Shown here piece after piece: positions 36,597-54,881 of a DNA stretch of 64,000 nucleotides; position 1 is the first letter of the stretch, and every line of letters starts with the position of its first letter. Origin of the DNA: Clostridia bacterium. Lineage in GTDB: Bacteria > Bacillota > Clostridia > Christensenellales > UBA1242. A program made the position numbers and the translations under genes. A model generated the notes under the pieces. It was not told the origin of the DNA, made no database searches, and saw only the letters and a program-made list of their open reading frames with translations. The stretch spans positions 15,977-79,976 of the forward strand of contig CAAGAO010000025.1 of NCBI GenBank assembly GCA_900767835.1. Direction: 5' to 3'.

Positions 36597-36860
36597 TTGA
36601 AAAAAGAAATAACTCGTATGTGTTTTATTTGTAGAAAAATACATAATAAAGATGATATGTTAAGATTAGTAAAAAATTCGAGTGGCGAAATTTTTATTGA
36701 TAAAACCGGTAAGGCAAATGGTAGAGGTGCATATATTTGTAACGATACTAATTGTATTGAACAAATAAAAAAGCAAAAGGTATTATCTAAGGCTTTTAAG
36801 TGTGAAGTGCCTTTAGATGTATATCAAAAATTATGTGAGGAATTAATTGATAAAAAATAA
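36597..36860 (+). CDS. ylxR: YlxR/RnpM family RNA-binding protein (DUF448)
   Basis: TTG start. RMCFICRK...LRLV...GKANGRGAYIC pattern. Confidence 0.85.
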   Translation: MKKEITRMCFICRKIHNKDDMLRLVKNSSGEIFIDKTGKANGRGAYICNDTNCIEQIKKQKVLSKAFKCEVPLDVYQKLCEELIDKK

Positions 36861-37164
36861 TTTAGATAAAATCAAAGGATATGTAGGAATTGCTACTAGA
36901 GCAAACTATATTGTATTTGGTTCGGATAATTTAAAAGGTTACACACATAAACTATTTATAGCCCTATATAGGCAGGACTATGGTAAAACTATTCAAAAAA
37001 CTTTAAACGAACTAAGGCAAAGGAATATTCCTTGTATCCAACTAGATGAAGAGGAATTTAACTATATTTCAGGATTAACTAATTGCAAATTGCTTGCAAT
37101 CAAGAATAAAGGTATTTCAGAACAGTTATTAAAAATTTTAAGGAGTGAACAGGTTAGTGGCTAA
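36847..37164 (+). CDS. ylxQ: L7Ae-family protein YlxQ
   Basis: About 100 aa between ylxR and infB. GIATRANYIVFGSDN pattern. Confidence 0.75.
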   Translation: MIKNNLDKIKGYVGIATRANYIVFGSDNLKGYTHKLFIALYRQDYGKTIQKTLNELRQRNIPCIQLDEEEFNYISGLTNCKLLAIKNKGISEQLLKILRSEQVSG

Positions 37165-51600: not shown

Positions 51601-53022
51601 ATGAAAAATAAAAGTATAACAAGTAGAGATGAAGATTTTGCACAATGGTATACTGACGTTGTTAAGTCAGCAAAATTAGCCGATTACAGTAGTGTAAAAG
51701 GTTGTGTTGTATTTGAGCCAAATGGTTATTCACTTTGGGAAAAAATGAAAGAAGTGCTTGATAAAAAATTTAAAGAAACTGGGCACGAAAATGTGTATAT
51801 GCCTGTATTAATTCCAGAATCACTATTAAAGAAAGAAGGTGAACTTATTGAAGGTTTTGCCCCTGAGTGTGCTTGGGTAACAAAAGGTGGTAGCGGAGAC
51901 TTAGAAGAAAATTTGGCGTTTAGACCAACGTCAGAGACTTTGTTTTCAGATTACTATTCAAAAAAAGTTAAATCTTATAGAGATTTGCCAAAATTATATA
52001 ATCAATGGGCAAATGTTATAAGGTGGGAAAAAGAAACTAGACCATTTTTAAGAACTAGGGAATTTTTATGGCAAGAAGGTCATACTATACATGAGACCGA
52101 AAAAGAAGCTATTGAAGAAACATTGAGAATGTTAAATGTGTATAAAGATTTCTTTGTAAATTATTTAGCAATACCTGTAATATGTGGTAAAAAGACTGAA
52201 AAAGAAAAATTTGCTGGGGCTGAAAGCACATACACCATTGAGGCATTAATGTATAATGGTGTCGCTCTGCAAAGTGCTACAAGTCATTATTTCGGGCAAA
52301 AGTTTGCAAAAGCTTATGATATTAAATTTTTAAGCAGAGAAGAAAAGTGGGAGTATGTTTACCAAACATCATGGGGTGCAACAACTAGAATGATAGGTGC
52401 ATTAATTATGGTTCATAGTGATGATAAAGGTTTGGTTTTACCACCAAAAATTGCTCCAAAACAAGTTGCAATAATTCCTATAGGTAAAGATGATTGTGTA
52501 AATACTATTGCTGAAAATTATAAAGAGATATTAAATAAATCTGGAATAACTGCATATGTTGATAAAACAGAAAAATCACCTGGCTTTAAATTTGCCGAAG
52601 CAGAGGTTAATGGTGTGCCAGTGAGATTAGAGGTTGGTGTGCGCGATTTAGATGCTGGAATGATAACGCTTGTGCGTCGTGATACTGGCGATAAAATTCA
52701 AGTATCAAAAGATTGTGATTTGGTTGATGTTGTTAATGTTTTGATGGATAAAATTCAAAATAACCTATTAGAAAAAGCGACCAAAAGGAGAGATGAGTTA
52801 ACATTTGAATGTAAAAACTTAGATGAAGTAATTGAACAAATCAATAAACAACCAGGTTTTATTAAGGCTGAGTGGTGTGGCTGTCAAGAATGTGAGTTAA
52901 AAATGAAAGAATATCGAGGAATAAAATCTAGATGCATTATTGATGATAATGTACAAAATGGTAAATGTGTTGTTTGTGGCAAACCTTCGAAATTTAATGT
53001 TATGTGGGGTATCCAATATTAA
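51601..53022 (+). CDS. proS: proline--tRNA ligase, archaeal/eukaryote-like type (no INS editing domain)
   Basis: 473 aa. Class II motifs (FRPTSE, TREFLWQEGHT), C-terminal Cys cluster and terminal Tyr (..MWGIQY). Confidence 0.95.
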   Translation: MKNKSITSRDEDFAQWYTDVVKSAKLADYSSVKGCVVFEPNGYSLWEKMKEVLDKKFKETGHENVYMPVLIPESLLKKEGELIEGFAPECAWVTKGGSGDLEENLAFRPTSETLFSDYYSKKVKSYRDLPKLYNQWANVIRWEKETRPFLRTREFLWQEGHTIHETEKEAIEETLRMLNVYKDFFVNYLAIPVICGKKTEKEKFAGAESTYTIEALMYNGVALQSATSHYFGQKFAKAYDIKFLSREEKWEYVYQTSWGATTRMIGALIMVHSDDKGLVLPPKIAPKQVAIIPIGKDDCVNTIAENYKEILNKSGITAYVDKTEKSPGFKFAEAEVNGVPVRLEVGVRDLDAGMITLVRRDTGDKIQVSKDCDLVDVVNVLMDKIQNNLLEKATKRRDELTFECKNLDEVIEQINKQPGFIKAEWCGCQECELKMKEYRGIKSRCIIDDNVQNGKCVVCGKPSKFNVMWGIQY

Positions 53023-53104
53023 TAGCACATATTGTATATACAATTACACTATATGTGCTAAATATTGTGGTGTTATGTGTTTTATTTTTCAATGTTTAAA
53101 CTAC

Positions 53105-53133
53105 TTGATTTAATTTATATTTTATGATATAAT
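53105..53133 (+). promoter_or_regulatory. near-consensus sigmaA promoter driving the large ncRNA
   Basis: TTGATT (53105-53110), 17-nt spacer, TGaTATAAT (53125-53133). The predicted start lies near 53139-53141. Confidence 0.65.
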
Positions 53134-53137
53134 AAAA

Positions 53138-53711
53138 AAGAAGGTGCAGTATCCTAGTCATCAAAGTTATACTGGAAGGTGATTTATAAAGCATCGACGG
53201 GCATATCTGTGAAGTTCTTTGTGTTTGCTTTGGTTGCCCAAACTGGGGCAGATGCTGAGAGTTAAGATTTTTGGGCGGGTTATAATGGCATATAGTCTTT
53301 ACCCCATTAATCGTGGAGACCTATTTTGGTGAAAACAATTGTTTTTACTATTTAGGCGTGAACCTGCATATGACAAACATTGTGTGCAGTGTAGCCTGCC
53401 TTGAGTGAATGTTTGGGAATATAGCGATTAAAACATACTTAAATTTTAAGCGCTTAATATAAGTATTGTTGTGTTATTGAAACAGCATTTGCAAAATTGG
53501 CTAAGGTGTAATGATGGTGTTTGGGAAAACCTCTAGGCTGTTGATATAAAATATATGTCAGGCATATTAAGGATTATAGTGCGCTCTTAGTGGCGATTCG
53601 GTGAAAGGTTTGTAGTTAAAAGGAAACTGCTTTTTTGGTGACAAAAAGTCTTATAAATGGGAAATCCAACCGAACCTATGTCGCAAGGTTTACTTAGTAT
53701 ACCGCCTTCTT
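53138..53711 (+). ncRNA. ole: candidate OLE (ornate, large, extremophilic) RNA, about 575 nt
   Basis: No ORF. G+C is clearly above that of flanking spacers. Terminal helix AAGAAGGUG (53138-53146) / CGCCUUCUU (53703-53711). Many internal hairpins. Lies upstream of an OapA-like gene in the xseAB...argR-recN neighbourhood. Confidence 0.7.
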
Positions 53712-53799
53712 AATTTGCAATTTCAAAGTCATTTTTATAATGGCTTTTTAATATATATAGATTAGATTATTTTTGTAAGAAATTCAAAAGGGTTTATTG

Positions 53800-54399
53800 A
53801 TGGAAGAGGTACCGAAACGGAATAATAAAAAAATAAAAAAACAAAGTATAAATTTGTGGCCTTTAAAAATATTGATTTTAGCGGTGGCATTATCTTTGTG
53901 TTTTAGTCTTTTGTCTGAATATGTAATGGGGGCAACTGGGGTTTTTGTTGCAATTATAGTAATAATTGTGTTTGTTTCACTTGCTATAATTACTGATATG
54001 ATTGGTGTGGCTGTAACTGCTTGTTCAAAAGAGCCATTTATTGCTATGTGTTCTAAGAAGGTGAGGGGTGCTAAAGAAGGTTTGATGTTGATAAGAAATG
54101 CTGACAAGGTTGCATCTTTATGTAATGATGTTATTGGTGATGTTTGCGGGATATTGAGTGGTGCTGCTGGTGCAAGTATTGTTGCAAGAATAACTGTTGA
54201 TTTTCAAAATGCAAATTTGTCAATACTTGTTGCTTCTTTGATAACTGCTTTTATTGCTGGTGTTACTATATTTGGTAAGGCGTTGGGAAAACGCACTGCT
54301 ATTGATAATTGCAATTCGGTTGTGCTTAAAGTGGGGAAGTTCTTAAGTTTGTTTACGAAACAAAATAAAACTAAAAAGAGTAAAGATAAGAAAAACTAA
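53800..54399 (+). CDS. oapA: OLE-associated protein A-like small 4-TM membrane protein
   Basis: About 199 aa (roughly 21 kDa) with 4 predicted TM segments. DxxxD in NDVIGDVCGILSGAAG. Basic N- and C-termini. Immediately downstream of the candidate OLE RNA. Confidence 0.65.
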   Translation: MEEVPKRNNKKIKKQSINLWPLKILILAVALSLCFSLLSEYVMGATGVFVAIIVIIVFVSLAIITDMIGVAVTACSKEPFIAMCSKKVRGAKEGLMLIRNADKVASLCNDVIGDVCGILSGAAGASIVARITVDFQNANLSILVASLITAFIAGVTIFGKALGKRTAIDNCNSVVLKVGKFLSLFTKQNKTKKSKDKKN

Positions 54400-54731
54400 G
54401 AGAACTGGTGTGTAAATATTAAATACTGGATAAACCATAACTGCTTTTTGATTGGCTTTATATAAATGGTGTGGGGTAGAGTATAATTCTCTTCCTATTT
54501 TTTTAATGTTATGAAAAGTTGTTATACAAATAATGTTTGTAGTGTTTTGTGTTAATAATAAGTTTGAACCATGTTTTGTTGTTGGGTTATGGTTAATTTT
54601 TATTTGTCGTTAGTTTGTTTTGTTGTTGTTTTTGTAAACAGTTGTGTTTTTTTTGTAATGTATAATGCGTTAATAAATATTAATTATGTTTTTATAAAAA
54701 TACGGTTAAGTAAATTTTAATAAAAAATGCT

Positions 54732-54823
54732 TGCATAAATATACATAAAATGCTTGCATAATTATAAATTGTATTGTATAATAATCAAAAATGAATGAAT
54801 AAACATAAATTTATATTTATGCA
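54732..54823. promoter_or_regulatory. cluster of ARG-box-like operators around the argR promoter
   Basis: TGCATAAATATA (54732), TGCATAATTATA (54755), TGAATAAACATA (54796) and the exact inverted copy TATATTTATGCA (54812-54823). Compare the ARG box half TGAATAAAAATTCA. Confidence 0.5.
54754..54782 (+). promoter_or_regulatory. candidate sigmaA promoter for argR-recN
   Basis: TTGCAT (54754-54759), 17-nt spacer, TATAAT (54777-54782). Confidence 0.6.
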
Positions 54824-54881
54824 TAAAGTGCCTCAATGCTTTTAAAATAAAGGCATTGAGGGGAGTTATAAGGAGGCAAAT

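Follow-up and report, generated by a model that had tools for sequence, protein, structure and literature searches.

The 64-kb window analysed here, a stretch of contig CAAGAO010000025.1 from a Clostridia bacterium, very probably encodes an OLE (ornate, large, extremophilic) RNA at positions 53138-53711 and its membrane partner, OapA, at 53800-54399. Among bacterial non-coding RNAs without an assigned biochemical function, OLE ranks with the largest and best conserved. A sequence-only reading of the window had proposed an OLE-class RNA of about 575 nucleotides (nt) in the gap between proS and a membrane-protein gene. When the whole window was scanned against all 4227 Rfam families, the OLE covariance model (RF01071) matched 53125-53724 on the forward strand at 346.3 bits (E-value 4.4e-98; gathering threshold 50 bits), with model positions 1-616 of 616 aligned and no truncation. 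It was the sole match in the 64 kb: no tRNA, rRNA, riboswitch or other family rose above threshold. Measured from one end of its closing helix to the other, the RNA has 574 nt, close to the size first estimated, and the sequence blocks conserved in OLE, GCAGUAU, GUGUAGCCUGCCUUGAG, GGAUUAUAGUG and GGGAAAUCC, are all present. It adds a so far unannotated example to a known class of RNA, and its variant type has already been published.

The RNA fills most of the largest gap between open reading frames (ORFs) in the window (53023-53796, 774 nt; the runners-up have 482 and 470 nt). The proS stop codon ends at 53022, the next ORF opens at 53797/53800, and 53114-53761 holds no ORF of 40 or more codons. 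That this ORF-free gap is richer in G+C than the AT-rich spacers nearby, as had been noticed from the letters, holds up: the RNA has 37.6% G+C, compared with 29.4% for the whole window, 19.1% and 19.3% for the two spacers flanking it, 24.1% for the spacer between oapA and argR, and a mean of 22.6% (maximum 34.1%) for 18 other gaps. Gene callers leave a 774-nt hole at this unannotated locus, and correct annotation has practical value. OLE hosts are anaerobic or extremophilic Bacillota; spoIIIAH and spoIVB are among the Firmicute sporulation genes of the window, its nearest relatives are metagenome-assembled genomes (MAGs) of gut Clostridia, and the host is presumably anaerobic.

The OLE fold is preserved and covaries among relatives

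Transferring the Rfam structure line to the window RNA gave 134 canonical pairs out of the 151 base pairs of the model, distributed over all 17 model helices; helix P8 carries mismatches, with 9/13 pairs formed. Two local hairpins that the sequence-only reading had picked out, 53329-53348 and 53435-53466, turned out to be the tips of model helices 53320-53356 and 53432-53470. The Rfam line leaves both ends of the RNA unpaired, and the closing helix lies outside the model. This helix, 53138-53146 with 53703-53711, had also been read from the sequence, with nine base pairs (bp) including one G-U, and it is found in the minimum-free-energy fold. Across 71 OLE RNAs, the segment 5′ of the invariant GCAGUAU complements the 3′ tail with many compensatory changes; the core pairs occur as GC, AU, UA or CG alternatives and are canonical in 60-68 of the 71. 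The strands read GAAGGUG/CGCCUUC in the window, CGGUGGUG/CACCACCG in Guopingia, GGGUAAGUGACG/UGUCACUUACCC in Ammonifex and GAAUUGGC/GCCAAUUC in an RF39-like MAG. The closing helix is most likely P1 of the published model, where P1, P2 and P10-P15 make up "domain 2" (PMC12265935). A long-range helix, CCUAG/CUAGG, is canonical in 70 of 70 sequences, and its first (outer) pair covaries (UA 34, CG 30, UG 6). The text of PMC12265935 suggests that it is probably P2; helix numbers here were mapped from the wording of papers, not from the published figure.

Relatives were collected by searching the downstream protein in one genome per GTDB species, which gave 80 loci. At each of them OLE was sought with nhmmer in two rounds, the query being the window RNA in the first and a profile of the resulting matches in the second. 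Fourteen of these RNAs (L001-L005, L007-L010, L012-L015 and L023) share with the window an architecture without helix P13, described below. We aligned the fifteen sequences with MAFFT and scored the Rfam-derived structure plus two extra helices. Standard pairs filled 87.4% of cells, versus 42-44% when partners were slid by 1-3 columns, and both sides had changed in 72 pairs, versus 28-36 in the slid controls; none of 500 shuffles attained the observed pairing and covariation. Six of the eight P1 pairs scored (53138-53145 with 53704-53711) change on both sides within this clade, and the hairpin at 53629-53650 (helix 20) covaries and is 96.6% paired. The low-pairing helices (P7, the P9 tip and P14) differ in length between sequences, and MAFFT visibly fails to align them. 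For a putative long-range P3 (53158-53166 with 53506-53514), which we leave unassigned, the covariation counts are uninformative because MAFFT misaligns this variable segment.

The RNA is 93, 82, 82 and 80% identical to those of the four closest species (L001-L004), while the flanking coding sequences are 72-86% and the spacers 38-62% identical. Identity above that of coding DNA, together with compensatory pairing, argues that OLE is here under purifying selection for structure and is not a remnant.

A candidate kink-turn can be recognised where 53205-53214 faces 53262-53268 (UU AA GAU). Its parts appear to fit: AUC/GAU would form the C helix, UGU the 3-nt bulge, and G.A and A.A pairs would follow. 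Conservation extends to the consensus on its flanks. A kink-turn of this type is the published site of OapC/YbxF (PMC9723947).

The downstream ORF as OapA

The ORF following the RNA had been described as a 199-residue protein with four transmembrane helices and a DxxxD motif (NDVIGD). Its ATG start at 53800 agrees with 99%-identical database proteins, and the AlphaFold2 model (mean predicted local distance difference test score 77.7) has four long helices (residues 20-45, 48-74, 101-132 and 138-169), in agreement with the hydropathy profile. In DVIGD, residues 110-114, the first aspartate (D110) never varies among 45 homologues and the second (D114) is retained in at least 90% of them. The surrounding block, CNDVIGDVCGI, is common to the proteins of the window, Ammonifex and C. 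lundense. Over 116 residues, the protein is 48% identical (E 1e-16) to the product of the ORF downstream of the 551-bit OLE of C. lundense. Nearly all of its 797 homologues are unnamed, and oapA is "hypothetical" in public records.

No match was returned by Pfam or NCBIfam at default thresholds because neither holds a curated OapA model. A relaxed Pfam scan gave CNNM (PF01595) at 17.3 bits (E 0.004), below the 28.4-bit cut-off, and CNNM was matched by 38 of the 45 homologues, with a best E-value of 3e-10. A PDB sequence search with the ORF returned nothing at E-values up to 1, and CorB was found by fold comparison only: the top Foldseek matches of the predicted model were archaeal CorB (MtCorB; 7M1T and 7M1U) and the transmembrane domain of bacterial CorC (7CFG), with probability 1.0, a TM-score of 0.55 and a root-mean-square deviation of ~3 Å over ~139 columns. 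The same picture, including 7M1U as a top structure, has been published for H. halodurans OapA (PMC11332333). Like the members of the H. halodurans BH2780 family, the protein has about 200 residues, four transmembrane helices, the DxxxD motif, a gene right after ole and a CorB-like fold. It shares the transmembrane fold and weak sequence similarity with the CNNM transporters MpfA, CorB and CorC, but lacks their CBS-pair and CorC cytosolic domains and has four long helices, not three. According to the literature, the DxxxD motif is absent from CNNM domains (PMC11332333), and by the curated threshold the predicted protein is not a member of PF01595. Taken together, the motif, the homologues, the sub-threshold CNNM match, the predicted fold and the linkage to OLE identify the ORF, as predicted from its sequence, as OapA.

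Linkage of OLE and oapA in a compressed locus

In the window, OLE and oapA are immediate neighbours on one strand, OLE coming first and 88 nt separating the two, and an OLE RNA stands directly upstream of the oapA homologue, on the same strand, in 77 of the 80 loci. At one of the three exceptions (L011) the contig ends 91 nt upstream of the gene, so that the locus cannot be judged. At the other two, L006 and L016, neither nhmmer nor Rfam found an OLE within 10 kb on either side. Their OapA homologues (within the stretches L006:8190-10546 and L016:8629-10558) show 51% and 45% identity, with CNDVIGDVCGI intact. L006 keeps the order xseA-xseB-proS-oapA-argR-recN, its proS and oapA standing just 60 nt apart; the oapA homologue of L016 follows tyrS. 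These two genomes may have lost the RNA and kept its protein partner, although an OLE elsewhere in them is possible. If the loss holds for the whole genome, they may mark a further step, an RNA-free OapA.

The canonical neighbourhood given in the sequence-only reading was verified in the sequence of C. lundense, where the order is xseA-xseB-ispA-OLE-oapA-dxs-tlyA-nadK-argR-recN-spoIVB. Pfam and NCBIfam annotation of the window likewise bore out the order proposed for it, and the window and L001-L004 share spoIIIAH-asp23-nusB-xseA-xseB-proS-OLE-oapA-argR-recN-spoIVB. None of ispA, dxs, tlyA and nadK was detected in the window or, at the 14 P13-less loci, at a distance of up to 10 kb from OLE. 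The locus is hence the canonical neighbourhood in compressed form, differing from the full-length OLE locus in the absence of these four genes and in having an archaeal-type proS (TIGR00408) where ispA usually sits.

Loss of P13 and relation to published OLE variants

P13 is the high-affinity OapB site, its GNRA loop docking into the minor groove of P12.2, and the P14.1 hairpin with its GUGA loop is a weaker second OapB site in H. halodurans (PMC7936274). Most of the other 56 sequences have a 22-nt GNRA-loop hairpin between the 5′ strand of P12.2 (AUYNRG) and that of P14. In the Rfam alignment, this slot holds 4 nt in the window versus a 21-nt insert in the consensus, and in the window and its 14 relatives it comprises only 4-5 nt, reading GAAAG, GAAAA, GCAA or GUAA. 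The GNRA hairpin with a single-nucleotide bulge that characterises P13 is therefore absent from the window RNA; the hairpin of the weaker second site (53629-53650) is retained. Other differences are smaller. The hairpin next after P2, probably P4a, is built of 4 bp instead of the model's 6, P7 has 37 nt versus 44 and P8 has 26 versus 29, while P9 has 104 nt in both. Rfam scores are 551 bits for C. lundense, 513 for Ammonifex and 346-347 for the window and its nearest relative, and the main cause of the lower score lies in domain 2.

Fernando and Breaker (2024) sorted 2,822 OLE RNAs in GTDB Bacillota by bit score into full-length RNAs (at least 390), "variant 1" (310-390) and "variant 2" (235-310) (PMC11332333). 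Variant 1 is commonest in the uncultured gut order TANB77 and often lacks the OapB-site nucleotides of P13, and its genomes largely lack OapB and OapC; since variant 1 lacks it, P13 is a feature of the full-length subclass and not of the OLE class (PMC11332333). By P13 loss and score band, the window OLE fits variant 1, a form found in gut Clostridia whose genomes are reduced. The OapB-binding nucleotides of P13 are missing in both, the window's 346.3 bits fall within 310-390 (their bands refer to their own covariance model, our score to that of Rfam), and the window's relatives are MAGs of uncultured Clostridia obtained from the gut of humans, chickens and ruminants. Variant 1 was described with shortened P7, P8 and P9; here P7 and P8 are only 3-7 nt shorter than those of the model and P9 keeps its full length. 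The sequence-only reading had judged any new and divergent representative worth recording. The RNA is new as a member of the class; its type of divergence, P13 loss at 310-390 bits, was already on record (PMC11332333).

With full-length OLE (RF01071; H. halodurans, Clostridium acetobutylicum, C. botulinum, Ammonifex), the window RNA shares the full model, the helix order and sequence blocks, P1 and the CCUAG/CUAGG helix, and a place directly upstream of oapA in an xseA-xseB...argR-recN-spoIVB neighbourhood. The differences are GAAAG at the site where full-length OLE has the bulged, GNRA-capped 22-nt hairpin P13, a score ~200 bits lower, and the shorter P7, P8 and probable P4a.

Intermediate forms of P13, hairpins of 13-17 nt without a GNRA loop, occur in L039, L042, L049, L052 and L057, and P13 erosion has therefore probably happened more than once. 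At the other extreme, five termite-gut Oscillospiraceae MAGs (L025, L028, L029, L041 and L047) have much longer OLE RNAs. The three that lie at full length within their contigs (L025, L029 and L047) are 680-800 nt long and carry large insertions in P7 and P8, L025 having one in P13 (74 nt) as well.

The contact of the tetraloop with the P12.2 minor groove is known from the co-crystal with OapB (PMC7936274). In the clade, P12.2 and P14 are directly connected by what remains of P13, a tetranucleotide of GNRA type (GAAA, GCAA or GUAA), and one speculative idea, which we hold to be rather unlikely, is that this linker alone might keep the minor-groove contact with neither hairpin nor OapB. If it did, these RNAs would be natural OapB-independent OLEs with a minimal domain 2, in loci that also lack ispA and dxs.

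Promoter and 3′ hairpin

Upstream of the RNA, the near-consensus promoter noticed in the letters (TTGATT, 17 nt, TGaTATAAT) is found at 53105-53133; it agrees with the consensus at 10 of 12 positions and has the TG extension, and the predicted start, ~53138-53140, falls on the first P1 bases. The match alone proves little, because the promoter scan yielded 16 sites where 12.2 are expected by chance. However, nearly all close relatives, L001-L004 among them, and many Clostridium loci carry a TTGACA-like -35 with an extended -10 that precedes P1 by 6-12 nt, and this conserved position argues for a dedicated promoter starting at the first base of P1.

On the 3′ side, a hairpin with a U-run (-7.5 kcal/mol, z -4.6) folds better than any of 200 shuffles. 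Nearly all clade members have a hairpin of differing sequence 3′ of OLE, often with a clearer U-tract. Our terminator scan missed the one in the window because it demands three G-C pairs. The hairpin is likely to serve OLE as an intrinsic terminator, though a weak or leaky one, or to stabilise its 3′ end; having just two G-C pairs, it probably leaks if it terminates. The oapA gene, 50 nt beyond the hairpin and U-run, would then probably be transcribed by partial read-through. Another hairpin, after the proS stop (53023-53060), was considered as a terminator and rejected (z -1.6, indistinguishable from shuffled sequence). The features of the locus are collected in Table 1.

Table 1. Features of the OLE-oapA locus, in window coordinates.
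Feature	Position	Strand	Details and basis
Sigma-A-type promoter	53105..53133	+	TTGATT (-35), 17-nt spacer, TG-extended TATAAT (-10); predicted
OLE RNA, P1 5′ strand to P1 3′ strand	53138..53711, 574 nt	+	RF01071; Rfam envelope 53125-53724
P1 5′ strand	53138..53146	+	pairs with 53703-53711, closes the whole RNA
CCUAG long-range helix, 5′ strand	53153..53157	+	pairs with 53533-53537, encloses domain 1
Candidate kink-turn, bulged strand	53205..53214	+	AUC (C helix), UGU (bulge), GA, AG; sequence inspection
CUAGG, 3′ strand of long-range helix	53533..53537	+	covariation
GAAAG linker replacing P13	53603..53607	+	Rfam alignment, comparison with relatives
GUGA-tetraloop hairpin (loop 53638-53641), corresponds to P14.1	53629..53650	+	8/9 model pairs form
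P1 3′ strand	53703..53711	+	covariation
9-bp hairpin and U-run	53725..53749 (hairpin 53725-53747)	+	folding versus shuffles
oapA (predicted)	53800..54399	+	199-aa membrane protein, four long helices, distant relative of the CNNM transmembrane domain
DxxxD codons (D110-V-I-G-D114)	54127..54141	+	within conserved CNDVIGDVCGI block

Alternative explanations

Several results weigh against reading the locus as a working OLE-OapA pair. The main OapB site is missing, and the bit score is ~200 below those of canonical OLEs (513-551). Neither OapB nor YbxF was found among the 16 small ORFs of the window when these were compared, as a joined query, with PDB sequences, the 64 kb being a small part of the genome. 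The 3′ hairpin is weak, with two G-C pairs and one G-U. L006 and L016 have retained an OapA homologue although no OLE lies within 10 kb of it, and OapA may thus not always need the RNA. Finally, the functional steps that we propose for this organism are all carried over from distant model species (H. halodurans, Clostridium).

Some of the same facts could describe a decaying remnant, an RNA pseudogene in a reduced genome that no longer functions. The score of 346 bits, compared with 513-551, the loss of the P13 hairpin, the incomplete P8 and the two relatives that keep oapA with no OLE would all agree with decay. A decaying sequence, however, would not be expected to be more conserved than the flanking coding DNA, and far more than the spacers, or to show compensatory double changes at 72 pairs in the clade. 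Promoter and 3′ hairpin are conserved as well, oapA is intact with its motif residues invariant, and the P13-less architecture is common to at least 15 species-level lineages. We regard decay as very improbable and, on conservation and covariation, reject it. There is slightly more to be said for the RNA being no stand-alone molecule and acting only in cis to control oapA, as the 5′ leader of its mRNA (or as a proS 3′ untranslated region). OLE and oapA are on one strand and 88 nt apart, the weak hairpin between them makes read-through into oapA likely, and the H. halodurans cluster is transcribed as one polycistronic RNA (PMC12265935). Yet an ORF of ~190 codons separates OLE from oapA in five RF39-like loci and in L086 and L087, and most clade members have a terminator-like hairpin between the two. 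In the model species, moreover, OLE is an abundant processed RNA that binds OapA in trans (PMC12265935, PMC9723947). The window has no match to a riboswitch, T-box or leader family in Rfam, and 574 nt with ~20 helices is far above the known size of leaders. A mere leader is, in our judgement, improbable. That the RNA belongs to some different large structured class (ROOL, GOLLD, raiA or a group I/II intron), its likeness to OLE being accidental, is the least credible alternative, with practically no chance of being right: RF01071 alone of the 4227 families exceeded its threshold, over its full length and at E 4e-98, and the conserved OLE blocks are in place. The Rfam scan refutes this alternative, and nothing was found in its favour.

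Possible function

Recent cryo-electron microscopy suggests that OLE may span the membrane; domain 2, the home of P13, is not resolved there. By analogy with the model species, the OLE of this organism (~0.57 kb) would fold into two domains and dimerise (PMC12286853), and OapA dimers would hold it at the cell membrane (PMC12265935). OapA may be seen as a transmembrane module of CNNM type that lacks what the MpfA/CorB Mg2+ transporters have in the cytosol, their CBS and CorC domains, and the RNA would then probably supply the regulatory and scaffold part of a device for divalent-cation homeostasis and stress adaptation (Mg2+, alcohol, cold, carbon source). Across genomes, mpfA and ole anticorrelate (PMC11332333). 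The particle of this lineage probably does without OapB at the P13 site.

The locus leaves the central question of OLE function unaddressed. Its compact, P13-less OLE, with a promoter, a compressed neighbourhood and at least 15 covarying relatives, amounts to a natural deletion experiment: it shows that the RNA and OapA can be kept when the principal OapB site is gone and ispA and dxs are no longer linked.

Neighbouring genes and other observations

The joined query of the 16 small ORFs against PDB sequences matched only YlxR, RbfA and a FeoA-like protein. The operon nusA-ylxR-[105-aa ORF]-infB-rbfA, within which 36597-37164 lies, is present in the window. The ORF at the ylxQ position (36847-37164, 105 residues) has no Pfam or PDB sequence match; ylxQ encodes an L7Ae-type kink-turn binder, a paralogue of OapC/YbxF.

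The proS gene of the window (51601-53022) encodes a 473-residue archaeal/eukaryote-like form (TIGR00408, with a ProRS-C_1 domain), and that of L006 (L006:8190-9896) a 568-residue bacterial form with an editing domain, at the same position between xseB and oapA. The difference looks like a non-orthologous replacement in place.

In RF39-like "Bacilli/Mollicutes" MAGs, the gene between OLE and oapA encodes a conserved protein of ~190 residues (L065:9369-9950, L045:4213-4791, L032, L066, L072 and L086:3001-3576), and the OLE-oapA unit is embedded in a cluster of cell-envelope glycosyltransferases (PF00953, GT1 and GT2). The protein belongs to no Pfam family, and its ~95 database clusters are all hypothetical. 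We considered it as a new OLE-associated protein and rejected the idea, since more distant members of its family occur in glycosyltransferase clusters without OLE or oapA, and it is thus not OLE-specific.

Where Clostridium has dxs-tlyA-nadK (~3.5 kb), the window has a 482-nt spacer between oapA and argR (54400-54881) with 24% G+C, falling to ~20% in its centre; it has no Rfam match and carries promoter-like sites on both strands.

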